64,000 nt of DNA. It comes from an uncultured Candidatus Saccharibacteria bacterium (GTDB lineage Bacteria; Patescibacteriota; Minisyncoccia; Phycocordibacterales; DATDWN01). Of the stretch, positions 1,026-56,575 are shown in pieces (the first letter of the stretch is position 1; every line of letters begins with the position of its first letter). The notes under the pieces are model-generated. The model had not been told where the DNA came from, made no database searches, and was given only the letters and a program-made list of their open reading frames with translations. The stretch spans positions 7,532 through 71,531 of the forward strand of contig CAZQYV010000002.1 of NCBI GenBank assembly GCA_964597675.1, given 5' to 3'. Made by a program: the position numbers and the translations under genes.

Positions 1026-3299
1026 ATGAATACACGAACAAAAAAATTTTTCGGCATCTACCTACCAATTATTCTTATTATCGTAACTATTTTTGTTGCA
1101 AGTTTCTTTTTTCAAAAAGTCGATACGGTTGAGGCGGGTTGGTATAACACTGGTGGTACATGGGGGTACCGTAAGGGGATTACTATTGATCACACCAAAG
1201 TTGGAGTTGGTACAACAACACCATTATTAAATTTTCCAATGCTATTTTCTGTAACAGACTCAGATCTAAAATTCACAGGTAGTGGAGGAAAGGTAGCATC
1301 ATCAACTGGGCTAGATATATTATTCACATCATCTGATGGAACAACAAAACTAGATTATGAAATGGAAAGTTATTCCAGTACAACAGGACAAGTTATAGCA
1401 TGGGTTCGTATTCCATCATTATCACCATCAGTTGATACTACTATATATGTATATTTTGGTAATGCCAGTGCAACTGATCAATCAAATAAGACGGGCGTGT
1501 GGGATTCAAGTTATAAAGGTGTGTGGCATTTGCCTGACGGTACAACTTTAACGGCAAATGATTCCACCAGTAACGCCAACAATGGGACTATAGTTGGAGC
1601 AACTGTTGCCACTGGTAAAATTGATGGTTCTGCAAATTTTGATGGAGTAGATGATTGGATCATAAGTTCAAATACTGTAAATACTGGAGTATCTACCGTT
1701 TCTACATGGGTTAAATTAAATGCTATTCCATCAGGGGATTCGTTAATAACTGGTTTTGTTCAAGGAAATGGTAGTACCGTATACGATAAGGATATTAAAA
1801 TTGACTCTGGGGGTTTAGTTAGATTTTATGTATATGGTTCTGGAACTCAGAACACCACCCCTACATCAGCACTGACAACAGGAGTATGGTATTACCTTGT
1901 AGGTACACAGGATGGGACTAATTCTTATATCTATCGTAATGGTGTACAGGAGGGTTCAGCTACAGTTGGAACTAGTTATACTAGTTATTCAAGTCCAAAT
2001 TTTTTAATTGGAGGTCGTTCATATGGATTAGGTCACACTAATCAAGTTTTGGATGAGGTTAGGTTTTCAAATATTGCACGTTCGGCGGATTGGATTGCCA
2101 CAGAGTATAATAACCAATCAAGCCCAAACACTTTTTATGTGTATGGGTCAATTGTTTTGTCAAGCCGTCCGCCAGACATCGCTGGTGTTGCTGTTAAAAA
2201 TCAGGTTACCACAGCACCAGGTTGGTACTCGACTGGTGGTCCTTGGTTATATAGAAAACAAATCACAGTTGATCATTCAAAAGTTTCAACAACAACATCA
2301 CTCACAGATTTTCCTATGCTTTTTTCTGTCACAGATATGGATTTAAAATATGTTGGTAATGGAGGGAAGATTGCTAGTTCGACTGGGGGTGACATTGTCT
2401 TTACATCTTCTGATGGGATAACTAAACTTTCTCATGAAATAGAAAAGTATTCATCAACCACGGGAGAGACAGTGGTATGGGTTAAAATCCCTACATTGTC
2501 CGGCGTGTCGGATACTATTATATATGTGTACTTTGGAAATGGTGAGGCAAGTAACCAACAAGACCCAGCGAACGTATGGGATAGTAACTATAAAGGGGTA
2601 TATCATTTGAAAGATGGGACAACACTCAACTATAGTGATAGTACTAGCAATGCAAAAAATGGTACTGTCGGGGGAGGGTCTTTTAATCCTACTGCAACAA
2701 CAGGGAAAGTAGATGGGGCAGCATCTTTTGATAACAATAGTTATCAATACATCTCTTTGCCAGGTAGTACGTTTGGTTCCGGTAGTGTGACAGTTGAGTT
2801 GTGGACAAAATTTACAACCTTTACAGGTTACTGGCCGATGTTTTCCGCTTATACTAATGATAGTAATTCAATAGAAATATTTGTTAATAATAATACTAAT
2901 TTATTTGGCGGTAATTATAACAACGCTGCAATTACTGGTGGAACGTTGGTGACTAATAAATGGTATCACGTTGTGTTAACCGCCGTTTCTGGGGGGGTTA
3001 CCCAATTCTATATAGACGGAGAACTCAGTGGAACGACCGGCACCACAAATTTTAGTACTTATACTGTAGCTCCATATATCGGTCGTCGTGCTGGTTATTA
3101 CTACAATAATATTATTGATGAAGTTAGACTGTCCTCGGGTATTGCCAGATCACCATATTGGATTAGGACGACATACAACAACCAATCATCACCAAATACT
3201 TTTTATGCCTATGGAAAATTGGAAAGTTCTAGCAGGGTAAATTCGTCCGGCGCTTCTGCTCCGACAGTAAAAACAAGGGGTGGAGTTAAGTTTCGTTAA
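1026..3299 (+). CDS. membrane-anchored surface protein with two tandem DUF2341 + LamG/ConA-like lectin modules
   Basis: N-terminal TM helix; two ~340 aa internal repeats (GWYNTGGTWGYRKGITIDHTKV... / GWYSTGGPWLYRKQITVDHSKV...) each followed by jelly-roll-like segment (DEVRFSNIARSADWI / DEVRLSSGIARSPYWI). Confidence 0.6.
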   Translation: MNTRTKKFFGIYLPIILIIVTIFVASFFFQKVDTVEAGWYNTGGTWGYRKGITIDHTKVGVGTTTPLLNFPMLFSVTDSDLKFTGSGGKVASSTGLDILFTSSDGTTKLDYEMESYSSTTGQVIAWVRIPSLSPSVDTTIYVYFGNASATDQSNKTGVWDSSYKGVWHLPDGTTLTANDSTSNANNGTIVGATVATGKIDGSANFDGVDDWIISSNTVNTGVSTVSTWVKLNAIPSGDSLITGFVQGNGSTVYDKDIKIDSGGLVRFYVYGSGTQNTTPTSALTTGVWYYLVGTQDGTNSYIYRNGVQEGSATVGTSYTSYSSPNFLIGGRSYGLGHTNQVLDEVRFSNIARSADWIATEYNNQSSPNTFYVYGSIVLSSRPPDIAGVAVKNQVTTAPGWYSTGGPWLYRKQITVDHSKVSTTTSLTDFPMLFSVTDMDLKYVGNGGKIASSTGGDIVFTSSDGITKLSHEIEKYSSTTGETVVWVKIPTLSGVSDTIIYVYFGNGEASNQQDPANVWDSNYKGVYHLKDGTTLNYSDSTSNAKNGTVGGGSFNPTATTGKVDGAASFDNNSYQYISLPGSTFGSGSVTVELWTKFTTFTGYWPMFSAYTNDSNSIEIFVNNNTNLFGGNYNNAAITGGTLVTNKWYHVVLTAVSGGVTQFYIDGELSGTTGTTNFSTYTVAPYIGRRAGYYYNNIIDEVRLSSGIARSPYWIRTTYNNQSSPNTFYAYGKLESSSRVNSSGASAPTVKTRGGVKFR

Positions 3300-3821: not shown

Positions 3822-3827
3822 AGACGT

Positions 3828-4180
3828 GTTATGTTGGGTAATTGCTCCGACTTTGTTGGAGAGGAAAGTCCGAACATTCACTCGCGCATAATGCTTAGGT
3901 GTGATAGCGCGAGGAGAGTAGCGGGTAACGCCCGTCCGTGGCAACACGAGAGGTGCGAGCAGTGACGCCAAAGGCGAAAGCTAATGGGTTCCTTTGGGAA
4001 TAATCCAGTTGAAAGACTGGGGTGAAACGGCAAAATCCTTACTTGGATGCAAGGCCGTGTCTGTCTGTATAGACAGAAGTGCCGCTTGACCCTATAGGTA
4101 ACTATAGGGCTAGATAAATAGTTATCGTTCAGTATTATTTTGATACTGGATACAGAATTCGGCTTATAGGCATAACATTA
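3828..4180 (+). ncRNA. rnpB: RNase P RNA (bacterial type A)
   Basis: conserved GAGGAAAGUCCGAAC (P4 5' strand), GGGUAACGCC, and 3' ACAGAAUUCGGCUUAUAGG (P4 3' strand) matching M1 RNA ACAGAACCCGGCUUA; P1 pairing gttatg(3829)/cataac(4171). Confidence 0.8.
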
Positions 4181-4182
4181 TG

Positions 4183-4324: not shown

Positions 4325-6709
4325 ATGCAAGAAAATAATGATGTGCTAGTGCAGAATAATCGAAATATGTTTGAGAAAATTGCCTTTGGAATTCTCTTTC
4401 TGGTGGCGTTTCTCACCCCAATATTCTTTTTACCTGTTGCCTTTATCTCTACACAGTTTGCCACAAGTTTGCTGTTTGGCTTTGGGGTTATTGCTGCGAC
4501 AATCGTGTATGTCATTGCAGGTTTAGTTTCTGGTAAAATTGATATCCCACAACGAGGTAAATATATGTTGGGGGCACTTGCTATTGTGCCACTCATGTAC
4601 GTGCTCGCAGGTATATCCAATGGCTTTTCTCGCATGACTTTTCTAGGTTATACGTTTGATATAAGCACTGTTGGTTTTATACTACTTTCCTTCATCTTTT
4701 TGTTTCTAGTGTCGATGCTTTTCCGATCAAAAAAGCGCATGATCAGTTCGTACATTGCATTTATCATGGGCGCAATTCTTCTTGTAGTATTTATTTCTGT
4801 TCGATTAATCATGGGGGTAAAGGTTCTTTCATTTGGAATATTTACGGATCTTACAACAACGCCGATTGGTGCATGGAATAATCTCGGTATATTTTTTGGT
4901 ATAACAACTCTCCTTTCACTTATTTCTTTTGAAATGATTCCTGCAAGTAAGTTGACCAAGACTCTTCTTGCAATTGCACTTTTGGGATCACTTTTTTTTC
5001 TTGCTCTTATTAACTTTTCTACTATCTGGATCGTGGTTGCAGTCTGCTCCCTTTTGTTTGTTGTTTATCGTGTATTTAGTCAACCATCCGATGCGTTTGC
5101 TCCTCTTGATTGGAAGGTGCGTCTACGACGAATTCCGGTGTATTCAGTCATCGTATGTATTATAGCAGTTGTCTTTACGCTATGGGGTTCAACTCTCGGT
5201 GTATTTCTTGCAAATAAATTATCTATATCAAATGTTGATGTCCGACCATCACTTTCGGTCACTCTCGATATTGCACGTAACACGATTCAATCACGACCAT
5301 TGTTTGGATCTGGTCCAAATACGTTTGTGACACAGTGGCTGTCCTATAAGCCAAATGATATTACACAGGGCGTATTTTGGAATACAGATTTTGCTTATGG
5401 TATTGGACTTATTCCAACATTTGCTGTTACAACTGGTTTATTTGGTGTATTATCATGGCTTCTATTTTTTGCTTTCTTTATTTTTCTTGGAGTTAAATCT
5501 ATTTTTGCCCACATTGATGATGTGATATTAAAATATTTTGTTACATCGTCATTCTTTGTGTCACTATATCTGTGGATTATGACATGGGTCTATGTTCCAA
5601 GTGGTGTAATTTTTATTCTGACATTCTTTTTCACGGGACTCTTCTTTGCATCAGTTTTTGTTAGTGACATAATGCAGACAACAGAGCATACGTTTACTAT
5701 CAATCCAAGATCTGGATTCTTTACATCTCTTGTTCTCATGGCTATTTTGGTCGCGGTTGGTGGGCTCGGGTACGGCTTGTTCAAAAATTCAAAATCACTT
5801 TGGTACTTCCAAAAGAGTTCATACGCATTGAGCGTCAGTGGCGATTTAAATTCTGCTGAACAATTGATGGCACGCGCAATTGCTACTGTGCCGTATGACA
5901 CATACTACCGTGCACTTTCTGAAATAGAGCTTATCCGACTCGGTCAGGTTGTCAATCAGGATGCGACAAAAATAAAAGAAGAGGATTTGCAAAAACAGTT
6001 TATAGAAGTATTTACTGCTGCGGTAAATGCAGGTATTGGTGCACGAAATGCTGATCCTGTTAATTACTTGAACTGGATTGCTTTGGGGAAAATATATGAA
6101 TCAGTCATACCACTCAAGGTACAGCAGTCCTACGAAAGTGCACAGTTTGCTTATAACGAGGCGCTACGGCGTAACCCAAAGAATCCGGGTATTTATGTGT
6201 TGTTTGCCCGTCTTGAAATTGCACGTGGAGATCTAAAGAGTGCCCGCAATTATGTGTCACAAGCGATACAAGCAAAACAAAACTATACTGATGCATACTT
6301 CCTTCTATCTCAAATCGAGGTTGCGGACAAGAACGTAAAAGGTGCAATTGATTCTGTTACCACTGCGACGGTAATTGATCCAACAAATGCAAACACATTT
6401 TTCCAACTTGGTCTCCTAAAATATAATGCACAGGATATCACAGGGGCAATTACAGCACTTGAACAATCGTTAAAAATCGCACCAGATTACGCCAATGCAA
6501 AATATTTCCTTGGTCTGAGTTATGAGTCACAAGGACAACATGATAAAGCGATTGCCCTTTTTGAAGATCTTGCCAAGACAAATCCTGATAGTAAGGAGGT
6601 TGCAACGATTCTCGAGTCACTTAAGGCAGGGAAGCCAATCTTCACCAGTCAGCAGGATACAAAGCCGGAAAATCGAGCAACATTACCTGTTAAGGAAAAA
6701 ACACAATAG
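4325..6709 (+). CDS. polytopic membrane protein with C-terminal TPR repeats (Wzy/O-antigen ligase-like family, cell-envelope glycan assembly)
   Basis: >=10 predicted TM helices in first 450 aa; C-terminal TPR-like repeats (AYNEALRRNPKNPGIYVLFARLEIARGDLKSAR...); adjacent to murJ. Confidence 0.5.
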   Translation: MQENNDVLVQNNRNMFEKIAFGILFLVAFLTPIFFLPVAFISTQFATSLLFGFGVIAATIVYVIAGLVSGKIDIPQRGKYMLGALAIVPLMYVLAGISNGFSRMTFLGYTFDISTVGFILLSFIFLFLVSMLFRSKKRMISSYIAFIMGAILLVVFISVRLIMGVKVLSFGIFTDLTTTPIGAWNNLGIFFGITTLLSLISFEMIPASKLTKTLLAIALLGSLFFLALINFSTIWIVVAVCSLLFVVYRVFSQPSDAFAPLDWKVRLRRIPVYSVIVCIIAVVFTLWGSTLGVFLANKLSISNVDVRPSLSVTLDIARNTIQSRPLFGSGPNTFVTQWLSYKPNDITQGVFWNTDFAYGIGLIPTFAVTTGLFGVLSWLLFFAFFIFLGVKSIFAHIDDVILKYFVTSSFFVSLYLWIMTWVYVPSGVIFILTFFFTGLFFASVFVSDIMQTTEHTFTINPRSGFFTSLVLMAILVAVGGLGYGLFKNSKSLWYFQKSSYALSVSGDLNSAEQLMARAIATVPYDTYYRALSEIELIRLGQVVNQDATKIKEEDLQKQFIEVFTAAVNAGIGARNADPVNYLNWIALGKIYESVIPLKVQQSYESAQFAYNEALRRNPKNPGIYVLFARLEIARGDLKSARNYVSQAIQAKQNYTDAYFLLSQIEVADKNVKGAIDSVTTATVIDPTNANTFFQLGLLKYNAQDITGAITALEQSLKIAPDYANAKYFLGLSYESQGQHDKAIALFEDLAKTNPDSKEVATILESLKAGKPIFTSQQDTKPENRATLPVKEKTQ

Positions 6710-12383: not shown

Positions 12384-12855
12384 ATCCTTTTACCTTGAGT
12401 CGTGTTTGCTTATGTTTGTCTATTTTCGGCATACGTATAATAAGAAGGCCGTGTTTTTCAACCGCATCAGATTCCTCGACATCAATTTCAGCTGGTAACA
12501 TAACAGTACGAGAAAATGTACCCCAATATAACTCTTGATGGTAGTAGTCTTCTTCACGAACAGTGCGCTCTGCTTCTCGTTTACCTCGAATAGTGACCAT
12601 ATCTCGAGTAATGGATATTTCTAGATCTTCTGGTCGTACACCAGCAACCATGGTTTTTATTATAATTTCAACAGGAGTTTGATATACATCTACAGCCAAC
12701 TCACCTTCTTCTGGTTCGTTTTCCATCCATGTATTAACTGTATTTGTTTGGGGAATCCGTGAAGTTGGAGGGGTTGGGACATGCGGACTATCCATGTCAG
12801 TATCGACACGGACTGCTCCGGTCAATTTCTCAAAGAACGATCGAGAGTCTTTCAT
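12382..12855 (-). CDS. Hsp20/alpha-crystallin small heat-shock protein
   Basis: GELAVDVYQT...EDLEISI..VTIRGKRE...GTFSRTVMLP...GLLII motif set. Confidence 0.8.
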   Translation of the reverse strand: MKDSRSFFEKLTGAVRVDTDMDSPHVPTPPTSRIPQTNTVNTWMENEPEEGELAVDVYQTPVEIIIKTMVAGVRPEDLEISITRDMVTIRGKREAERTVREEDYYHQELYWGTFSRTVMLPAEIDVEESDAVEKHGLLIIRMPKIDKHKQTRLKVKG

Positions 12856-12879
12856 AATATGTTTATAAAATTAAATGAT

Positions 12880-13578
12880 CTAAATAGGTTTGTGAATACG
12901 TTTTACTCTTTCAAAGAAGAGCATCACTATAATAATTGCAAACCAGACTGCACCAAAGACAAGAAATACACTTCCTTCTGCTTGCTTAATTATAAATAAA
13001 TTAAAGGATGTATGCAATAGGATTGCAAAGACTATACCGATGAGGAGATACATTTGCTTGAACCAAATTGAACGATAAAACGAAAGTGCCATACAAATAC
13101 CGATTGTTGCTGAAGACAATGTGTGTAGGAGACTTGCTCCCATAAAACGGAGATTACTTGTCATAATTATACCGGCAAAGTCACCAGTATGAACCATATC
13201 GACAAGGAAAAGTGCGTTTTCTAGTGCAACAAAACCAAGTGCAGAGACGATAAGGTAGATAATATTGTCCACAGGTTCGTCGGTGACCTTTCGTGACAGA
13301 GCAATATAGTAGACGATAACAAATTTTGCCAGCTCTTCTATGATTGCCCACAGTACAAATGAAGTATTTTGATCGGCAACTGTATCATATACGATACGTT
13401 GTAACGGGAGGGCCACGATGACAGCAAGCATACCACCAATAAATGATAGGGTGAGTATTTTTGCGGGCTCAGGATGAGCATCTTCTTTTAGCCAAAACCA
13501 CAACCAAATCAATGCTGGTATGATGCCTATTATAAATGAAAGAAAAAATGGGTATTGTTGTAATGTAGAGAGTAACAT
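12880..13578 (-). CDS. PrsW-family intramembrane metalloprotease
   Basis: multi-TM; IIEELAKF and ALGFVALEN motifs. Confidence 0.7.
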   Translation of the reverse strand: MLLSTLQQYPFFLSFIIGIIPALIWLWFWLKEDAHPEPAKILTLSFIGGMLAVIVALPLQRIVYDTVADQNTSFVLWAIIEELAKFVIVYYIALSRKVTDEPVDNIIYLIVSALGFVALENALFLVDMVHTGDFAGIIMTSNLRFMGASLLHTLSSATIGICMALSFYRSIWFKQMYLLIGIVFAILLHTSFNLFIIKQAEGSVFLVFGAVWFAIIIVMLFFERVKRIHKPI

Positions 13579-13584
13579 AATAGA

Positions 13585-13640
13585 GCAAATGATTCATGAT
13601 TCATGATTTAGGATTCACGATTCATGATGATTTTATATTT
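13585..13640. repeat. short tandem repeat (GATTCATG-like x5) in valS-prsW intergenic/promoter region
   Basis: atgattcatgattcatgatttaggattcacgattcatgatga. Confidence 0.6.
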
Positions 13641-13647
13641 ATCATAT

Positions 13648-15831
13648 CTATTTTGGCCACATAGTAACCATAAGTAGTTGTTTACCGGTTGGCTGCATAT
13701 GAGACCAGATTTCCTCTGTAATGAAAGGCATAAATGGGTGAAGGAGAATTAGTATTGTTTGTAGAATATAATGCAGAGTGTATTTTGTCGATGCAACAAT
13801 GCTTGGATCATCACTTTGTAAGCGTGGTTTTGATTCTTCTATAATTATATCAGCAAATCGATGCCATACGTAGTGGTATAGTTTTTCCGCAGCAAGATAA
13901 AAACGTAGGTTGTCCATATCGAGTGTAACATCGGCAATAATACTCTGCAGTTCATCTAGGTATACCTGATCATAATCTCTTAGTGCAGGCTCTTCGGATA
14001 TATCGTGCTCGGCTGTATTTGAAAGTACAAATCGGGTAATATTCCATATTTTATTACTAAAATGTTTATACGCCTTACATTTTTCGTCTGAAAACTTACT
14101 ATCATTGCCTGGGCCCGTACCAACCATAAGTGCCATGCGTATAGCATCAGCACCATATTTTTCTATCATTTCTACAGGATCAATATTATTGCCAAGAGAT
14201 TTGCTTATCTTTTTACCTTGGCTATCACGCACAAGTCCGTGCAAGTATACTTTTTCAAATGGAATTTGCCCGACAAGGTATGTGGACATAAGTATCATAC
14301 GAGCAACCCAAAAGAATAAAATATCATATCCAGTCTCTAAGACTGATGTTGGGTGGTATGTGATGAAATCATCAGTTTTTTTTGGCCAACCAAGTGTAGA
14401 AAACGTCCACAGCCCAGATGAAAACCATGTGTCTAGTGTATCGCTGTCCTGTATCCAGTCATCACCTTTTGGTGCGTCGATACCGCAGTATGTCTCATTT
14501 TCTTTGTACCAAACAGGTATCTGGTGACCATACCAAATTTGTCTACTAATGCACCAATCGTGAAGATTTTCAATCCAGTGTGTATATACCTTTTCAAATC
14601 TATCAGGAATAATATCTACATTTTTGTGTTCGATAACAGAAAGCATTAATTTTTTGAGTGTTACCAACTCTCCCTTTTTAACACTAGGAAGTGTATCAAA
14701 TGCATACGGAAATTCCTTGTTAACATCAATAAACCACTGGTGCATAATCTGTGGCTCAATAATTCCGCTTGTCCGTTCGGCAGTAGCAACATTGTGCGTA
14801 TAGTCCTCCTCTTTAACAAATAATCCTTTTGATTGTAATTTTTCGATTATTTTTGGACGTGCCTCTGCAATTTTCATGTGAGCAAACTCACCGCTTATTG
14901 GTAGCAGTTTTCCGTATTGGTCTATGATCTGTTCTTTATCAAGGTTGTGTCTTTCTGCGATTTCAAAGTCAACCATTGAGTGCCAAGGGGTGATTGTCAT
15001 AACACCAGTACCAAATTCCATGTCGATTGATTCATCCTTTATTATAGTTGCAGTAATCGGTCCGTTTATCCATTCGAGGTCTATTTTTTGGCCATCTGTA
15101 TATTCACGATAGCGGGTATCATCTGGATGCATGACCACGTATTTATCTCCAAATTTTGTTTCAGGTCGAGATGTACTAATGACAAAAGGTCCGTATTTGA
15201 AATAATACAATTTTGTTTTCTCCTCCATGTATACAATCTCATCATCAGAAATAGTCGTCTGACCTTTTGGATCCCAATTTACAATACGATGTCCACGATA
15301 AATAATGCCATCATCATACATTTGTTTGAATGCAGTCCGGACAGCAAGATTTCTTTCTTCATCAAGAGTGAACGCTTCTCGTGACCAATCAACAGAGCAT
15401 CCTATTTTTTTCATTTGACTTACAATTGTGTCGTGACTTTCACTGGCAAAAGTTTCAACTCGCTTTAAAAACTGTTCACGGCCAAGATCGTGTCTATTTT
15501 TACCCTCTGCTTTTTGCATCAGTTTTTCAACCTTTGATTGTGTGGCAATCGCAGCATGGTCTGTTCCTGGAAGCCATAATGTTTTTTTGCCAGACATACG
15601 ATTATATCTAACCATAGTGTCTTCGATGGCTAACATAAAAGCACTTCCCATATGGAGTGTTCCTGTAACATTTGGTGGGGGAAGTACACAAGAAAAACTT
15701 GGCGCATTATTTTTTGTCACGCCCTGTTTTATGCAAACATCAGGGTCAAAAAAACCACTTTGTAACCAGAGTGTATATATAGAATCCTCCGTTGCTTTGG
15801 AGTTGTATGGGGACAAAAAAATATCATCCAT
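13648..15831 (-). CDS. valS: valine--tRNA ligase (short form lacking C-terminal coiled coil; HIGH motif reads HMGS)
   Basis: PPPNVTGTLHMGSA, WLPGTDHAAIATQ, KISKSLGN (KMSKS); 727 aa. Confidence 0.8.
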   Translation of the reverse strand: MDDIFLSPYNSKATEDSIYTLWLQSGFFDPDVCIKQGVTKNNAPSFSCVLPPPNVTGTLHMGSAFMLAIEDTMVRYNRMSGKKTLWLPGTDHAAIATQSKVEKLMQKAEGKNRHDLGREQFLKRVETFASESHDTIVSQMKKIGCSVDWSREAFTLDEERNLAVRTAFKQMYDDGIIYRGHRIVNWDPKGQTTISDDEIVYMEEKTKLYYFKYGPFVISTSRPETKFGDKYVVMHPDDTRYREYTDGQKIDLEWINGPITATIIKDESIDMEFGTGVMTITPWHSMVDFEIAERHNLDKEQIIDQYGKLLPISGEFAHMKIAEARPKIIEKLQSKGLFVKEEDYTHNVATAERTSGIIEPQIMHQWFIDVNKEFPYAFDTLPSVKKGELVTLKKLMLSVIEHKNVDIIPDRFEKVYTHWIENLHDWCISRQIWYGHQIPVWYKENETYCGIDAPKGDDWIQDSDTLDTWFSSGLWTFSTLGWPKKTDDFITYHPTSVLETGYDILFFWVARMILMSTYLVGQIPFEKVYLHGLVRDSQGKKISKSLGNNIDPVEMIEKYGADAIRMALMVGTGPGNDSKFSDEKCKAYKHFSNKIWNITRFVLSNTAEHDISEEPALRDYDQVYLDELQSIIADVTLDMDNLRFYLAAEKLYHYVWHRFADIIIEESKPRLQSDDPSIVASTKYTLHYILQTILILLHPFMPFITEEIWSHMQPTGKQLLMVTMWPK

Positions 15832-16134
15832 TTATTTAGAATATCATATTTTCAAAACTGACGGTAGGGGACAAAATCAGGTCTTTTACTGGTATAAAGG
15901 ACATGTCTTATATAATTTCAATAAATGTCCTTTATAATATAAATCTATACGGTGTGTCTAATAAAGGGTATTAAAAAATATTAAGGACAGATTTTTAACA
16001 AAATTATAGGACATTATTATATGGCTATAAATATGGGTATTTGGTGTATCTGTTTTTATGGTGCCTATTGACAGATTTGTAAATTAAGTGTAGTCTATTG
16101 CATTATTACAAACGTGTAGAAAATCAGAAAAATT

Positions 16135-19100
16135 ATGAACAAAACAATCACCAATTCAACTAAATATGTAGGAGCATTCATTGCATTTTTGCTTATGATA
16201 GCTGCTCCGATAGGTATTTTGTTTGCTGATTCTACACTCTCAAACGAAATAGTTCAGGACCCTTCTGGTATTGGAGGTGAATCTGCTGTGTGCGGAAAGA
16301 CATCTACATGGTGGTTTAGAAATGGTGCCTCACAATTTAATCTATATCGTAATACACTCAATACTGCTGCCGGCGCACAAAAAATTCTTTCAAATGTCTC
16401 TTACACAGACCCAACATATGGCGGATATATTGATACTGTTCCAGCAGGAACATATTTTTATTGGGTAGAAAATGTTGGTGGCATAAATAAAGTTCCATCA
16501 TTCAACAATAGTACTGGAGGTATTGCAGTCAGCGCCTGTTTAAATAAACCACAAATAAGTATTATTGGTGATCGAATTGTAAATGTTCAGGTTGGAGGTA
16601 CTTACACAGATCTCGGAGCCACAGCAACAGATGCAGAGGATGGAAATATAACATCACAGATCGTAAAGACTGGGACAGTCAATACTGCGGTCGTTGGTAC
16701 ATATAAAATTTCATATTCAGTAACAGATACTACAGGATTGACTACATCAGTTTCTAGACGAGTTGTTGTTTCTGTAAACATGTGTGCACTTGATATCTGT
16801 GCGGGAGGAAATGGCCAACCAGCAATAAATCCTCCAACTTCATTTTCTGATGTGCCACAGTCTAACCCTCACTGGTCAGATGTAAACGAGGCATCATCAC
16901 TATGTCTTATGATTGGTTATGGTAATGATATTTTCGGTGTAGATACTGATTTGACACGTGGTGAGGTTACTAATGTGTTGACACGTATGCTTCATTGGGA
17001 TATTTCATCATCAAGTTCACCAACAGTTTCTATCTTTAGTGATGTGCCACTTGATCGATACAATAGATCTTCAATAGAAATGGCATACCAAAAAGGTATG
17101 GTAGATTCATGTGGTACAAATCCACTTCAGTTTTGTCCAGATGGAGCTACTACTCGCGGTAAATTAGCGATGTCCTTGACCAAGGCACTCGGTCTTTCCG
17201 TTACATCTGCTCCTGCGGCACCGTATTACACGGATGTTTCTTCAAACGACACGTATTTCCCATACATACAGCTTATGACTCAGCATGGCATCATGGGCTC
17301 ATGTCCAACTGGCGCATCTAATACATTTTGTCCTACATCTACTATAAAACGAGGAGATGCGGCACTGTATTTTGTAAAAGCATACGAATATCTTTTAAAT
17401 CATGACAATTCTTGTGTCATTCCAGTCAACACCCCACCAACTATCACTCTCGTGGGTAGTAACCCACTATCATGGACAGTCGGTACACCATTTACTGATC
17501 CAGGAGCCACAGCAACAGATGCAGAAGATGGAAATCTAACATCACATATTGTTTCAACAAGTACAGTCAATGCAAACATTGTCGGTACATACACAATCAT
17601 CTACTCTGTCACAGACAGTGGTGGACTCTCTGCTACAACAACACGTACAGTGAATGTGGTGGCGAAAATAAATACATATTGTCCAGATGGTTTGCCGATG
17701 ACATATGAAAAATTTGCAGAGGCGCGAAATGCTGGTTTAGTTAATTATGCTATTGAAATAAGTTCAACAACTAGTCGTGCAACTGTTCAAGTTACAAATC
17801 AGACAGGTTGTCAGATACCAATGAGTCTTTCGGTATATAAGATGTACGATGGAGTTTTGTCTAATCAGGTACTATTCGATGGGGATGGTGTTACAAATGC
17901 AACATCATCAACAGCATTTAAAGCAAATGTACCTCGATGTATGGCACAGGTTGATTTTTGGTATGGCCAATATCCGACAACACTTCTAGATTCAAATCCA
18001 TATGGTAATCCACCACCACCAGTAGTGCTTGCATGGTCAATACATAATCCAACAGGTCAGTATTGTTCTGACGCAATCCCAAACACTCCACCAACTATCA
18101 CTCTCGTGGGTAGTAACCCACTATCATGGACAGTCGGTACACCATTTACTGATCCAGGAGCCACAGCAACAGATGCAGAAGATGGAAATCTAACATCACA
18201 TATTGTTTCAACAAGTACAGTCAATGCAAACATTGTTGGTACATACTCAATCATCTACTCTGTCACAGACAGTGGTGGACTCTCTGCTACAACAACCAGA
18301 ACGGTCAATGTGGTTGCGAAGCCATACGAAGATCTACCTCCAGTACTAACAGTCATAGGTGCTAATCCAGCAAATATAAATGTCGGTGAGTCATATAATG
18401 ATCCTGGAGCAACTGCTTTGGACAAGGAAGACGGTGATATCACTGCTCAGATCGTCGCAACAAGTACTGTAAACACTTCAGTCGCAGGAACATACACTGT
18501 GACTTATCGAGTGACAGATTCTAAAGGACACACTGTATATGCATCAAGGACAGTAATCGTTTCTCCAGTGGTCCAACCACAAAAAGGGACGATAACGATA
18601 TGTTTGCTTGTTGCAGATACAAATAATTCACTAGCGACATCATCTCTAAACGTACCGCAGGGGACTATCGGTCTCTCTGTATTTGGTGCATCAACAACAA
18701 CCCCGATTCAGTCAAAGATGTGGAATACCAGTGCATTTGCTCCAAACCAAAAAATTATTTTGACAGCAAATGATGCTGATTGTGTTACATATAGTAATCT
18801 TGATATTCGATCATATATATACACACAGGCCACAACAACAGGCGTACAATGGAATCAGCCAAAATATAATAGTCAGGAGACACAACCGGTAAACAATGTG
18901 TTCGACTTCTTTACATTCTCAACTTCAACGGTTAATGCAAACGGTGTGATTAATCTCACAACAGAGCGACCAAACCGAACACTTGTATTATATGCGACAT
19001 ATAACCCTGCACCGCAGTGTATGATTCCAGTTATCACATCTGCACTTTCTGCCACTGGAACAGTAGGACAGTCATTTACTTACACAATCACTGCAACATC

Positions 19101-46647: not shown

Positions 46648-47745
46648 TCACTCCAAAGAACACAAAATAGTGACGGTTTTCTTATCTGGTGATTGGAATC
46701 GCTTGGTTATGATTCCACCACCAAGATTTAATGGGGTCCCAGGAACGTATATCTCTTCCCACTCACCATTGACCAGAACCTTTACAGAAGTGTCTGGATC
46801 TGGTCTACATGTCATACTTCTGTCTTGCGGAGTGATGACGACATCACCCCACTTCCCGACAGGTGCCTCGACAATCCATGACTCCCGGAACTTTCGCTGA
46901 GTCCATGGAGCGAGACCGTACCGTGTTCGGAGGTGCAGCGCAGCTTGGAGGTTACCCTCGATGGTCGTAATATCCATCTGCGTCAGATCGATATCGAGGG
47001 CTTTTTGTTGGATGACCTCCTTGGCCCACCAGCCCTCGTTGATCTGCATGACGCCGACATCATCCTTGGCGCCATTTTGGTTGTGGTTTCTCACAACCGT
47101 TCCATCGTCGTTCCTCTGGTTACATCCAGATTCGTTTCTACAGATTATCACCATCTCTTCGACGGTGATATTGGGATGAGGATGACCATCCCAGAATTTC
47201 CTCACTGCCTCCGTGTCTTTTCCCTCTGCTTCCTTGGGTCGTAAGAGGGTAGGGTGCCAATTGCTTGGCAGAGGGGTGGCGTAGCGTGTCGGGCGGATAG
47301 TTTCTTTGACAATTGTTATTCCCTCATCACCACTAATCGTGTGGTAAAGAGATCTACCAACTGCAAATAGTCCAAGTGCGCAGAGAATTATCCCAATCTT
47401 TGATAGATATCCCTTTTGAGTACAGAGATAGAACCCAAGACCGAGAATGATCTGATACAACATGAACCATGGCTGTGACCACCACCTCACCCAGAACTCC
47501 GGGAACATCATCCACACAATCAAATGTATGGAGAAGATTCCAGCGAAGAGGAGTAGAAAGTTTTTCCATGCGTTCCACTTCTTTTTTATCCACTCCCTGG
47601 ATGCGGTTGGAGCAAGTGAGGTTTGTTGTCCGTTTTGCTGTCGTGGTTTCCTGATAAGCTTGTACCAAGCAACCACAAGTAGCAGTATAGTCGCACCAAC
47701 TGGTGCAACAATAAAGAGATAAAGCAGAATCGTTTTTATGTCCAC
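46648..47745 (-). CDS. membrane-anchored lytic transglycosylase (SLT domain; VirB1-like)
   Basis: N-terminal TM helices; NESGCN...VGVMQINEGW catalytic-Glu block. Confidence 0.6.
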   Translation of the reverse strand: MDIKTILLYLFIVAPVGATILLLVVAWYKLIRKPRQQNGQQTSLAPTASREWIKKKWNAWKNFLLLFAGIFSIHLIVWMMFPEFWVRWWSQPWFMLYQIILGLGFYLCTQKGYLSKIGIILCALGLFAVGRSLYHTISGDEGITIVKETIRPTRYATPLPSNWHPTLLRPKEAEGKDTEAVRKFWDGHPHPNITVEEMVIICRNESGCNQRNDDGTVVRNHNQNGAKDDVGVMQINEGWWAKEVIQQKALDIDLTQMDITTIEGNLQAALHLRTRYGLAPWTQRKFRESWIVEAPVGKWGDVVITPQDRSMTCRPDPDTSVKVLVNGEWEEIYVPGTPLNLGGGIITKRFQSPDKKTVTILCSLE

Positions 47746-49951: not shown

Positions 49952-50034
49952 GTGGGCGAGAGAGGACTTGAACCTCCACGGATTACTCCACCAGTTCCTA
50001 AGACTGGCGCGTTTACCAATTACGCCACTCGCCC
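49952..50034 (-). tRNA. tRNA-Leu (anticodon TAG)
   Basis: rc: GGGCGAG...CCAGT-ctTAGga-ACTGG, long variable arm, GGAGG-TTCAAGT-CCTCT, CTCGCCC-A. Confidence 0.85.
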
Positions 50035-50134
50035 AATACGTACACTCTACTGTATTTTGAGAAAAAAATAAAGAAGGCTGATATATAGCACTATTCCGCT
50101 TGTTTTGCAGTATCTTTGTGTCTTGGATATTTCG

Positions 50135-50260
50135 CTCGTCGTCACTCGCGAAATTCCTCCGACCCAGACCTCGCTGGTTTTGCCTACTGGCAAAACATAG
50201 CTCCGGTCTGCACATGTACGAGAAAGCCCCATGCAGATGGGGCTTTCTCGTACATGTGCA
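50135..50260 (-). repeat. tRNA-Lys downstream variant module: 23-bp perfect hairpin (50209-50260, overlaps last 4 nt of tRNA) and GAGTGACGACGAG box (rc at 50135-50147)
   Basis: tgcacatgtacgagaaagcccca-tgcaga-tggggctttctcgtacatgtgca. Confidence 0.7.
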
Positions 50261-50329
50261 CCCAGCAGGGATCGAACCTGCGACATTCTCCTTAAGAGGG
50301 AGCTACTCTACCAGCTGAGTTATGGGTGC
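50257..50329 (-). tRNA. tRNA-Lys (anticodon CTT)
   Basis: rc: GCACCCA-TA-ACTC-AGCTGGTA-GAGT-A-GCTCC-ctCTTaa-GGAGA-ATGTC-GCAGG-TTCGATC-CCTGC-TGGGTGC-A. Confidence 0.85.
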
Positions 50330-50392
50330 AAACTATTTCAAACAAATTTACAGTAACATAAAATGATATTTTTTAAAAATATAATTTTATTT

Positions 50393-50565
50393 GTGCCCGA
50401 GGTGGAAATCTTCCGCGATTCAAAACTCGCCGTCGCTCATTTTGGTCGTGTCCGCGACTCGCGACCAGTCGTGCTCGACTGGTACCCGCTCCGTCTTTCG
50501 ATTCCCAACGTAAAGTCGTAACACGACTTTACTCTCGTGCTCAAAAACTATATACATAGTTTTTG
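50393..50565 (-). repeat. tRNA-Leu(TAA) downstream module: inverted T-arm copy, 9-bp hairpin (50464-50485), GAGCGACGGCGAG box (rc 50426-50438), degenerate direct copy of tRNA 3' end (50393-50410)
   Basis: tgcccgaggtggaaatc vs tRNA tgcccggagtgggaatc. Confidence 0.6.
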
Positions 50566-50647
50566 TGCCCGGAGTGGGAATCGAACCCACATCCCTTGCG
50601 AGACACGATTTTAAGTCGTGCGCGTATACCAATTCCGCCATCCGGGC
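50566..50647 (-). tRNA. tRNA-Leu (anticodon TAA)
   Basis: rc: GCCCGGA...CACGA-ctTAAaa-TCGTG, long variable arm, GTGGG-TTCGATT-CCCAC, TCCGGGC-A. Confidence 0.85.
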
Positions 50648-50709
50648 AATATAATTATAAAAAACATTCCGTCGGTTCAATTCCGCTAGAAAAAGCGCTG
50701 CTTTTTCTG

Positions 50710-50781
50710 AGGCCTGGGGCGGAATTGAACCGCCGTATATTCCTTTTGCAGAGGAATGCCTTACCACTTGGCTACCAGGCC
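50710..50781 (-). tRNA. tRNA-Cys (anticodon GCA)
   Basis: rc: GGCCTGG-TA-GCCA-AGTGGTAA-GGCA-T-TCCTC-tGCAaaa... GGCGG-TTCAATT-CCGCC-CCAGGCC-T; downstream hairpin + inverted T-arm copy (50664-50709). Confidence 0.8.
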
Positions 50782-54550: not shown

Positions 54551-55690
54551 TCAATTGATTGTATCATACTTTATAATTTTACTCTTATTGGTATCACTTT
54601 GCTTTGACACAAGTGTTATTCGTTTAATCTCATTTTTTCCGACTGCAATCACTGAATCAATATTGTGAATAAAGGATAAATTACGTGGCAATCTTGTTTT
54701 AGTGACTAGTTTTGTTTCTGTTTCTCGTAATTTTGAAATAATCATTTCAGCATCTTCATTCCCAACATATCCTTCAGATATACCGATGTTTATCTCTTCC
54801 TCAAGGATTTTGAGATATTTCTTTAATAGCCATGCCTTTTGTTTATTATTCAAATCATCCAATCCAAGCCGACTTAAAAACAAATCAGGATTAAATCCTG
54901 CAGGATCGGTACACAGATCTTCCAGCACTTCGAGTACCTCGCTGATATTTCCAGTCATGTGCTCAATTGGTATTCCCTCCGCTAGTCCATATAGATATTC
55001 ACTTTCAAGATCCTCTATACCCATAACAGCAGAATCAATCCATTCTCGATGAGTTTTCGTAATTTCTTCCTGCTCATATTCTGGTGGTATGCTTGATTTA
55101 ATCTGAATGAGACTCATGGTTTCAATTGATTCATCCTCACCGTATATCATCTCAACCAGATCAATCTTGTAGTGTGCATCTAGCCCAGTTTCAAAATAAA
55201 AATCATAGGATTGTGCTGGTGACAGGTTTAAAATTGCTTTTCTGCCACGTATGAAATTCACAACACTTTTAATTCCGTTTGATCTAATGTCAATTTCACC
55301 ACGAGTTATTTTTTCAAATTGTTTTGGGGTGACATCAATTGCACCTCTCCTACTCATAATATATTTTTTGAAACCAGTATTAAACTGTCTCACGATACTA
55401 TCTATTTCATCATCAGATAAATTTTCAGCGTATTCAACAAATAGATTCTCGATATGAGCGAAACCACTCACATTACCATTTTCCTTTTTTTTCAGGGCAA
55501 TGAGTAGATTTTCATACATTGCGGCATTTCCCACAAGCTCATTTTGTGCCTCAGCAAGTGCTTCATTTCGGTTTATCTTGTCATGTGGTTTTGACACATC
55601 GAGCATATCAAGTCTTCTTTCACTATGATCTGGAATATTCTGTGCATTTGGCTTTGATTCGATGGTATATATGTGTGGAGGTCTTTCCAT
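54551..55690 (-). CDS. hypothetical protein (no recognisable domain)
   Basis: long acidic ORF; start taken at Met31 (TATATAAT upstream) to avoid overlap with divergent gene. Confidence 0.45.
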   Translation of the reverse strand: MERPPHIYTIESKPNAQNIPDHSERRLDMLDVSKPHDKINRNEALAEAQNELVGNAAMYENLLIALKKKENGNVSGFAHIENLFVEYAENLSDDEIDSIVRQFNTGFKKYIMSRRGAIDVTPKQFEKITRGEIDIRSNGIKSVVNFIRGRKAILNLSPAQSYDFYFETGLDAHYKIDLVEMIYGEDESIETMSLIQIKSSIPPEYEQEEITKTHREWIDSAVMGIEDLESEYLYGLAEGIPIEHMTGNISEVLEVLEDLCTDPAGFNPDLFLSRLGLDDLNNKQKAWLLKKYLKILEEEINIGISEGYVGNEDAEMIISKLRETETKLVTKTRLPRNLSFIHNIDSVIAVGKNEIKRITLVSKQSDTNKSKIIKYDTIN

Positions 55691-55756
55691 AATTTGTATT
55701 ATATAAAATATAACAGGATATTTACTCTCTAATCTGATGGTGATATTATACAGTGT

Positions 55757-56575
55757 ATGGAGGACCTCAACAAGAACCAAATTATATTACTGACATTATT
55801 GGTTAGTTTTGTTACATCTATTGCCACAGGCATCATGACAGTCTCTTTGCTCCAGCAGGCACCTATCGAGGTGACTCGAAACATAAATCGTGTTGTGGAA
55901 AAGACAATTGAAAAAGTCACTCCAGCAGATATTTTGGGTCCAAAAAATACAGAAGTTACGACGGTAGTGGTCAAGGAAGAGGATTTGGTTATTGATGCCA
56001 TAAACAAAAATGTTAAAAGTATTGTACGTATAAAGGAACGTGATGGATTAGGTGAAACTACATTTTATGGAATGGGACTTGTCGTTTCAAAAGATGGCTT
56101 GGTAATTGCCGACCGGCAGACAATTCATACAGACAGTGCTTACTTTGTTGTTATAGATGGAGTTGATGTTTATATCAATCCAGTCGGAGTGGACAAAAAA
56201 ACAGATTTCCTTTTGTTTAAGGCAGCACCTGCAAAAGATAAAAAATTTGATTTTGTTCCGGCTACTTTTGCTGGAGTGGATCCAAAATTAGGTCAGTCTG
56301 TCGTGGCACTTGGTGGCGATGCTTCCAACGCAGTGGCGGTCGGGCGAGTCATTTCATTTTCTATGCGAGAGTCTGGTACTGGATCAACTACAGTAAAATA
56401 TGTATCAGGCATTGATACCGATATTGTCAGTCGTGATTTGGTAGCAGGTAGCCCTATTTTTACATTAGCAGGGGATATTGTTGGCATGCACACATCAGGT
56501 GGGTCTGGGAAAATATTCACATCATCCCAGCTTCTAAAGAAGGATTTAGCGACTCTTTCAGAGCTCATTAAATAG
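55757..56575 (+). CDS. membrane-anchored trypsin-like serine peptidase (S1/HtrA-like core, no PDZ)
   Basis: N-terminal TM; GSPIFTLAGDIVGMHTSGGSG catalytic-Ser region. Confidence 0.55.
   Translation: MEDLNKNQIILLTLLVSFVTSIATGIMTVSLLQQAPIEVTRNINRVVEKTIEKVTPADILGPKNTEVTTVVVKEEDLVIDAINKNVKSIVRIKERDGLGETTFYGMGLVVSKDGLVIADRQTIHTDSAYFVVIDGVDVYINPVGVDKKTDFLLFKAAPAKDKKFDFVPATFAGVDPKLGQSVVALGGDASNAVAVGRVISFSMRESGTGSTTVKYVSGIDTDIVSRDLVAGSPIFTLAGDIVGMHTSGGSGKIFTSSQLLKKDLATLSELIK

Follow-up and report, generated by a model that had tools for sequence, protein, structure and literature searches.

The gene under study lies at 16135-20967 on the forward strand of the window, which is the whole 64,000-nucleotide stretch of contig CAZQYV010000002.1 that was analysed. 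It is an open reading frame (ORF) of 1610 amino acids (aa) with an ATG start and constitutes a single transcription unit. Its product was predicted to be a surface protein, and three of its segments, each encoding an immunoglobulin (Ig)-like domain, are almost identical at the DNA level. Moreover, a shorter form of the same gene was found in a sister strain, represented by contig L081. The features of the gene are listed below, together with the domain names used throughout.

16135..20967 (+): whole ORF, 1610 aa; intact as a 1205-aa form in sister strain L081
16135..16227 (+): predicted Sec signal peptide, aa 1-31, with cleavage predicted between ...GILFA and DS (hydropathy maximum 2.56)
16228..16545 (+): N domain, aa 32-137, probably a beta-sandwich, with no Pfam family (marginal PDB sequence match to 4u49, E 1.4e-3)
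16546..16779 (+): Ig1, old PF16403 copy, aa 138-215 (70.8 bits; synonymous divergence, dS, 1.33 vs Ig2)
16810..17427 (+): SLH triplet, aa 226-431 (PF00395, 50.2 bits for aa 226-432)
17428..17661 (+): Ig2, repeat copy R2, aa 432-509 (repeat search, Pfam)
17662..18081 (+): X1, aa 510-649, four conserved Cys, helix plus beta-sandwich (nine homologous segments aligned; AF2 pLDDT 86)
18082..18315 (+): Ig3, repeat copy R3, aa 650-727 (repeat search, Pfam)
18337..18570 (+): Ig4, old PF16403 copy, aa 735-812 (82.2 bits; dS 1.84 vs Ig2)
18571..19059 (+): X2, aa 813-975, conserved Cys pair, beta-sandwich (twenty homologues; AF2 pLDDT 93)
19060..19305 (+): He_PIG domain 1, aa 976-1057 (38.8 bits)
19306..19539 (+): Ig5, repeat copy R5, aa 1058-1135 (repeat search, Pfam)
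19549..19818 (+): He_PIG domain 2, aa 1139-1228 (Pfam; best stretch aa 1151-1225)
19834..19878 (+): poly-Gly linker, 15 Gly, encoded by a GGN repeat; 18 Gly in L081
19879..20259 (+): X3, FN3-like, aa 1249-1375 (marginal match to FN3 chain 3b83)
20260..20484 (+): PG_binding_1, aa 1376-1450, bracketed by two invariant Cys (28.7 bits alone)
20485..20844 (+): Ser/Thr-rich low-complexity linker, aa 1451-1570 (alignment of the C-terminal cassette)
20845..20901 (+): predicted C-terminal transmembrane (TM) helix, aa 1571-1589 (19 residues), followed by a charged 21-aa K/E-rich tail (hydropathy maximum 2.23; kept in relatives)
20971..21009 (no strand): hairpin with a 17-bp stem and T/A runs on both sides, directly 3' of the stop codon

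The repeat search delimited three direct repeats of 234 nt at 17427-17660, 18081-18314 and 19305-19538, which were 96-99% identical to each other (blastn E 1e-109 to 1e-121). In codon register, the unit comprises the 78 codons from NTPPTITLVG to RTVNVV (aa 432-509, 650-727 and 1058-1135) and corresponds to exactly one PF16403 domain (Bact_surface_Ig-like, formerly DUF5011). An earlier note, made from the letters of this DNA, had described three near-identical copies inside a 1610-aa ORF and two more divergent ones, and both descriptions were borne out, the divergent copies being Ig1 at 16546-16779 and Ig4 at 18337-18570. No further copy was found by blastn elsewhere in the 64-kb window. All five domains were assigned to PF16403 by Pfam, with 71-82 bits each and 322 bits in total. 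Thus, of the DUF5011/HYR-type label given in the earlier note, the DUF5011 (PF16403) part stood, while the HYR part remained below the threshold (E 0.05-0.8). This was the only domain call of the note that the Pfam searches it had proposed did not support; the two He_PIG domains, the SLH triplet, the PG-binding motif, the 15-Gly tract and the C-terminal TM segment were all supported by Pfam, hydropathy or the sequence itself.

The three young copies share a run of 49 consecutive codons, and their pairwise differences amount to 3-9 nt, clustered at the 3' end. Only one nonsynonymous site lies inside the unit (T/S at aa 487/705/1113). Near-identical repeat pairs are used by diversity-generating retroelements (DGRs), which are frequent in Candidate Phyla Radiation (CPR) genomes. 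However, it is hardly credible that the copies are the template and variable repeats of a DGR or serve another kind of programmed hypervariation, as all of them are in-frame coding domains, and their 13 variable sites were mostly synonymous and not adenine-specific. The DGR was rejected, since no reverse transcriptase was found among the 30 window ORFs scanned and the differences had no A-bias. An assembly error that pasted one domain into three places of the window is likewise highly improbable. The copies can be told apart by diagnostic differences, their flanks are unique and the reading frame is kept, Ig domains occupy the same architectural positions in relatives, and the independently assembled L081 reproduced R2, R3 with its upstream flank and the downstream junction of R5.

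The near-identity of the copies is recent. The dS among R2, R3 and R5 was 0.07-0.12, compared with 1.3-1.8 to Ig1 and Ig4, which share 50-58% aa identity with the young copies. These values support the homogenisation by duplication or gene conversion that the earlier note had proposed. The copies are also dispersed. The start-to-start spacing was 654 nt for R2-R3 and 1224 nt for R3-R5, with X1 and Ig4-X2-He_PIG1 lying between, and the sole adjacent Ig pair, Ig3-Ig4, was only ~50% identical. As the flanks of the three copies are mutually unrelated, tandem duplication of a larger unit was rejected. Each Ig position has an architectural precedent among the relatives, namely, X1-Ig, Ig-X2-He and He-Ig-He-X3. 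Furthermore, at site 55 of the unit both copies of L081 have T, where the three of the window have C, and the T and S residues have exchanged paralogous positions between the window strain and L081. From the dispersed copies, the unrelated flanks, the positional precedents, site 55 and the swapped residue, we infer that pre-existing Ig domains were homogenised by gene conversion, and this is favoured over recent insertion or tandem duplication. Such intragenic homogenisation is not special to the window gene because 17 of 120 relatives carried a PF16403 pair at ≥90% identity, and 58 of the 129 Ig domains in the family that shares its C-terminal cassette (described below) had their nearest relative inside the same protein.

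The consequence that such repeats may have for the length of the gene was seen in the comparison with L081 (JGI contig Ga0265292_1003930, 8735 bp), a single short-read metagenome contig that is 95-97% identical to window 12741-22263. In the blastn alignment, L081 1-5567 corresponded to window 12741-18314 and L081 5334-8301 to window 19305-22263. Accordingly, L081 has one hybrid repeat in place of the window stretch from R3 to R5, and two repeat copies in total. The segment absent from it, identified by blastn and ORF comparison, is as follows.

18315..19538 (+): one Ig copy, Ig4, X2 and He_PIG1; 1224 bp, i.e., 408 codons, in frame

The exact deletion junction is undefined because its borders fall inside the R3/R5 repeat. 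The L081 ORF is intact, with 1205 aa; it shows 15 amino-acid substitutions, and its GGN tract is longer by three Gly codons (9 bp). This short form is the product expected from a crossover between R3 and R5. The dN/dS between the window and L081 was 0.04-0.08, which points to strong purifying selection on the domains themselves. The earlier note had held the gene to be prone to recombinational contraction or expansion, and the 1224-bp in-frame difference, together with the 9 bp in the GGN tract, supports this, with an artefact being possible. No whole-protein orthologue was found in the GTDB species representatives. The comparison with L081 is the sister-genome check that the note had suggested. 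Exact look-up of the 1610-aa protein and of the valyl-tRNA synthetase (ValRS) in the contig index gave no match, and the exact matches of TsaD and Hsp20 were only contigs of 1-2.6 kb that did not span the repeats. An exact search of metagenome contigs with a 26-mer from the repeat core was also negative, as this 26-mer contains differences in the sister strain.

The divergence between the two strains was uneven. It was 0-1% over 15741-18314 and 4-11% on both sides, with the right-hand switch exactly at the repeat and 11% divergence just downstream of the repeat junction. Window 15741-18314, which covers intergenic DNA and the 5' 2.2 kb of the gene, was 99-100% identical to L081 3001-5567, with zero mismatches over 15741-16740, while the divergence was 4-11% in ValRS, in TsaD and over the 3' half of the gene. 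The low-divergence block is either a recently exchanged block or the sign of a chimeric contig. The 1224-bp difference reflects either a real change of length by recombination or an artefact of assembly. It is possible, though the less probable of the two, that real, homogenised repeats coexist with an artefactual short form in L081, near-identity being a mere by-product of occasional gene conversion. The borders of the deletion are exactly the repeat, and divergence jumps there from ~1% to 11%, as if the contig crossed strains. In addition, genes of the cassette family assemble badly, as many members are partial proteins on short contigs and a same-strain Logan contig stops inside the gene. 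However, the short form is perfectly in frame with an intact ORF, and a second, independent indel in the GGN tract indicates that repeat-mediated length change does occur between strains. The left edge of the low-divergence block (~15741) is not at a repeat, and a simple repeat-driven chimera would thus need a second, unexplained switch. Moreover, de Bruijn assemblers break contigs at unresolved repeats more often than they skip loops.

The protein was examined by hydropathy. Only two hydrophobic segments were detected, at aa ~13-31 (signal-peptide-like) and ~1571-1589 (TM-like), and the ...VFAD pattern at the end of the signal peptide is kept also in the relative P0121. The TM helix forms part of a cassette at the extreme C-terminus, in the order Gly run, X3, PG_binding_1, linker, TM helix and short K-rich tail. 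PG_binding_1 scored 23.3 bits in the whole protein (cutoff 23 bits) and 28.7 bits when scanned alone, and this part was 50-80% identical to relatives, with a maximum of 81%. Of 122 cassette representatives, 105 had X3. At 19832-19877, the GGN tract encodes 15 Gly (aa 1234-1248); in nearly every relative, X3 likewise follows a Gly run, which is shorter there (4-9 Gly vs 15-18 here).

When the whole protein was searched, the relatives were dominated by Ig repeats. The same C-terminal cassette was carried by 36 proteins among the first relatives, most of them with an Ig-X2-He_PIG core, and the cassette alignment had 51 invariant columns. A profile of the cassette matched 9165, 4720 and 1017 representatives of 50% clusters at E≤1e-3, 1e-10 and 1e-30, respectively, almost always at the C-terminus of proteins of 330-4000 aa. 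Named members belong to Paceibacterota, Parcubacteria, Zambryskibacteria, Gribaldobacteria and Minisyncoccia. Judged by sequence, the window gene belongs to a large unnamed Paceibacteria family, the hallmark of which is the polyGly/FN3-like/PG_binding_1/TM cassette, and the combination of PF16403, He_PIG, polyGly, PG_binding_1 and TM helix is the family norm. The earlier note had called the domain mix unusual; for this combination the claim was overstated because the mix is the norm in a large Paceibacteria family, and it holds for the SLH head only. Except for PG_binding_1, the C-terminal cassette (19879-20964; P0222-P0343) has no family model, and the same applies to X1, X2 and the N domain.

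In the stalk portion, the two He_PIG domains gave 59 bits together in the whole-protein Pfam search. Nothing above the threshold was found in the Pfam searches for the N domain, X1, X2, X3 and the Ser/Thr linker, and the PDB sequence searches with the same four domains and the C-terminal linker gave the same result. The N domain was otherwise met only in P0121 and twice in P0122. Using Foldseek, the structural neighbours of X1 were generic Ig/FN3-like folds only, and the X2 model had a weak likeness to domains from the stalks of pilins and adhesins in Gram-positive bacteria (6n0a, 5u5o and 2xtl; E ~1e-3, TMq 0.37-0.45). An isopeptide or ester bond in X2 was considered and dropped because inspection by eye showed conservation of the Cys pair but not of the candidate Lys and Thr.

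The SLH triplet sets the window protein apart from its family. Two of the SLH motifs passed Pfam singly, and the third was visible in the alignment to Sap. In sequence searches, the region resembled B. anthracis Sap (3pyw, 6bt4) and G. stearothermophilus SbsB (4aq1) with E 2e-5 to 9e-5. The Arg-containing TRAE-type motif of SLH domains supplies ligand-binding residues, as established in work on Sap and SpaA. TRGE, TRGK and KRGD, one per SLH motif of the window protein, aligned with TRAE, DRVS and TKAE of Sap. The earlier note had placed Cys pairs in all three motifs; SC...FCP pairs were present in motifs 2 and 3, where they are shared with the relative P0123, and absent from motif 1. A profile of the SLH region matched the window protein with E 2.4e-64 and none of 297 Ig- or cassette-family proteins, and therefore the N-Ig-SLH head is rare in the family. 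Apart from the window, this head was found only in the fragment P0121 (49% identity) and the strain variant L081.

Since the SLH triplet matches the SLH regions of Sap and SbsB, the protein could be regarded as an S-layer subunit, in which, as with Bacillus Sap/EA1 or SbsB, the triplet anchors a self-assembling lattice to a pyruvylated secondary cell-wall polymer. SLH-domain proteins have also been linked to S-layers and host contact in another Patescibacteria family, Absconditicoccaceae (bioRxiv 10.1101/2024.03.08.584096). However, this reading is quite unlikely. Canonical S-layer subunits bind the wall non-covalently and have no membrane-spanning anchor, while the predicted TM helix at aa 1571-1589 occurs family-wide and, with PG_binding_1, would provide two extra anchors foreign to such subunits. 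The remainder of the protein is the mosaic stalk of a family otherwise without SLH (0/297). No known crystallisation domain was detected, and no domain outside the SLH region matched a known S-layer protein. The gene is also missing from the same slot in many sister genomes. Consequently, the term S-layer-like used in the earlier note was not retained, as SLH denotes wall attachment and not lattice formation, and canonical S-layer proteins do not combine a TM anchor, as predicted here, with a PG-binding domain.

Taken together, the window gene is best read as encoding a Sec-exported, fibrillar, envelope-anchored surface stalk protein of Paceibacteria (Parcubacteria, CPR) that varies in stalk length and composition by recombination. 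We place the probability of this reading at roughly 0.55. In the proposed architecture, the C-terminal TM helix would hold the protein in the membrane, and the disulfide-bracketed PG_binding_1 and FN3-like X3 would sit in the peptidoglycan, followed by the poly-Gly tract as a hinge. From there, nine beta-sandwich domains (five PF16403, two He_PIG, X1 and X2) would form the outward stalk, and the N domain, Ig1 and the SLH triplet would form the distal head. Gene conversion would keep three non-adjacent PF16403 domains near-identical in DNA, and these 234-bp identities could serve as substrates for homologous recombination, by which the cassette between copies would be lost or gained whole. A crossover between R3 and R5 would then give a form without Ig4-X2-He_PIG1 that is 408 codons shorter, as in L081, and slippage in the GGN tract would add a further difference in Gly length between strains. 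The outcome would be strain-level variation of both the length and the composition of the stalk.

Several points weigh against this reading. The 1224-bp difference rests on one metagenome contig, and at such a repeat an assembler may leave out a loop or fuse two strains. The divergence switch at the repeat fits a real unequal crossover between strains and a chimeric contig alike. An SLH triplet far along a membrane-anchored stalk would be topologically odd if its ligand were the wall of the same cell, and no match to csaB (PS_pyruv_trans, pyruvyl transferase) was found among the 30 ORFs scanned in the 64-kb window. The role, most likely that of an adhesin or spacer, is suggested by the domain types alone.

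With regard to the ligand, the SLH triplet may loop back to the cell's own wall or, more speculatively, bind the wall of a partner. The latter can be extended to a host-attachment device of one Paceibacteria lineage, in which the SLH triplet and the rare N domain would act as a grappling head for the pyruvylated wall polymer of the host, and Ig recombination and Gly-tract slippage would adjust, from strain to strain, how far the tether reaches and what it is composed of. This extension is unlikely; if true, it would represent a dispersed-repeat version of the Periscope principle discussed below.

The surroundings of the gene were those of an ordinary chromosome. The window encodes MurJ, LepA, Hsp20, PrsW, ValRS, TsaD, FtsZ, FtsA, signal peptidase and S1, as well as GyrA, IF-2, ClpB, MiaA, MurA, RNase P RNA and eleven tRNAs. 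ValRS was at most 69% identical to that of any GTDB species representative, and its good matches were all from Paceibacteria-type Patescibacteria (such as Nomura-, Taylor- and Lloydbacteria). The tsaD-valS slot was compared between window 13648-22224 and loci L001-L010, L028, L036, L060 and L071. In many Paceibacteria genomes, tsaD directly precedes valS; in others, as in the window, a large opposite-strand gene lies between or beside them. ValRS-based synteny in the GTDB species representatives revealed no orthologue of the whole protein, only positional counterparts with other ectodomains (PF16403, DUF642/CBM, DUF4114, PKD and Big_5), of which L005 and L010 share the PG-binding cassette. As the ectodomains of the positional counterparts differ, the slot is considered to hold a fast-changing surface-protein gene.

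The hairpin at 20971..21009 is predicted to be a bidirectional terminator, placed where the surface-protein gene and tsaD converge. In the promoter scan, the signal was no higher than the shuffled expectation. The earlier note had also pointed to the same spurious ORF on the reverse strand of each repeat. Such antisense ORFs exist at 17400-17600, 18057-18254 and 19080-19478 with a common N-terminus, and they are by-products of reading the repeat in reverse.

Other observations concern the remainder of the window. A second likely surface protein of 757 aa is encoded at 1026-3299 (+), with two Laminin_G_3 (concanavalin-like) and two DUF2341 domains. The RNase P RNA gene at 3826-4182 (+) scored 101.7 bits against an Rfam gathering threshold of 100, which suggests a divergent or reduced RNA. 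Directly upstream of murJ, a 794-aa protein at 4325-6706 (+) has C-terminal TPR repeats, its N-terminal 570 residues being without assignment. A 230-aa ORF at 22320-23012 (-) has an N-terminal helix-turn-helix-like segment with a weak Pfam hint of an Xre/MbcA/ParS-like protein; it ends ~10 nt inside the tRNA gene at 22258-22329 (-), and the same ORF was called on the Logan contig L109. Four tRNA genes are clustered within ~830 bp at 49953-50781 (-). Five ORFs of 200-409 aa had no Pfam match at E≤1e-3 (32-1012, 24010-24612, 24944-25750, 46651-47745 and 54554-55780).

To our knowledge, little is known of the means by which the ultra-small cells of CPR/Patescibacteria become attached to hosts or surfaces, except for a few Saccharibacteria, in which type IV pili are implicated. 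Our literature search found no report on DUF5011 in Patescibacteria. The locus is presented as a concrete candidate for CPR attachment, from a very large unnamed family of membrane/peptidoglycan-anchored stalks and with a rare SLH head. With it come to notice two to four beta-sandwich domains and a C-terminal anchor cassette of wide occurrence, all without a family model. Compared with members of this family such as P0017, P0036, P0093 and P0222, the window protein has the same cassette order, the same PF16403/He_PIG/X2 mosaic (with X1 in some) and the frequent intraprotein homogenisation of Ig domains, and it differs by the added N-Ig-SLH head and the longer Gly tract.

Compared with the SLH-anchored Sap, EA1 and SbsB of monoderm bacteria, the window protein likewise has three SLH motifs in succession, which are ~55 aa long and all contain the conserved TRAE-type motif with its Arg. 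However, its SLH triplet is located after the N domain and an Ig domain and has Cys pairs in motifs 2 and 3, and the other end of the protein carries a PG-binding domain and a predicted TM helix with no lattice domain. The SLH proteins of Absconditicoccaceae, compared by description only, are similar in being CPR surface proteins with a proposed role in host contact, but they belong to another class (the Gracilibacteria/Absconditabacteria lineage vs Paceibacteria) (bioRxiv 10.1101/2024.03.08.584096).

The closest comparison is with the Periscope Proteins (SasG, Aap, Rib and Sgo0707), which are defined by identical tandem repeats that form a uniform rod (PMC9704523). Like them, the window protein appears to be a single-chain stalk with an N-terminal head, a C-terminal envelope anchor and stable beta-sandwich domains, given the topology predicted here. 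It also contains repeat domains of >50 residues with very high DNA identity (three 78-codon copies, 96-99%). The apparent length difference between close strains, seen in the one short-read contig L081 and possibly an artefact, would be explained by homologous recombination between repeats. Unlike in Periscope Proteins, the copies are dispersed among unrelated domains and form no uniform tandem rod. A crossover between them removes the heterogeneous Ig4-X2-He_PIG1 and thus changes composition as well as length. There are also only three identical copies, the anchor would be a TM helix with PG_binding_1 and not LPXTG/sortase, and the organism is a CPR bacterium. Among the PF16403 relatives, P0092, P0058, P0030 and P0064 hold sets of 97-100% identical domain copies; those of P0092 and P0058 are arranged in regular higher-order units of ~374 and ~178 aa, and these two proteins are thus the stronger candidates, among CPR bacteria, for Periscope behaviour of the truly tandem kind. 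The window gene is an uncommon variant of a well-known route for varying bacterial surface proteins, and in L081 there is direct but unverified evidence for the in-frame loss of a cassette between strains through dispersed identical domains. Should the length polymorphism not be true, the locus is an ordinary mosaic surface protein; if it is true, the Periscope idea reaches beyond the tandem arrays of pathogens to repeats that lie interspersed, in uncultured bacteria.

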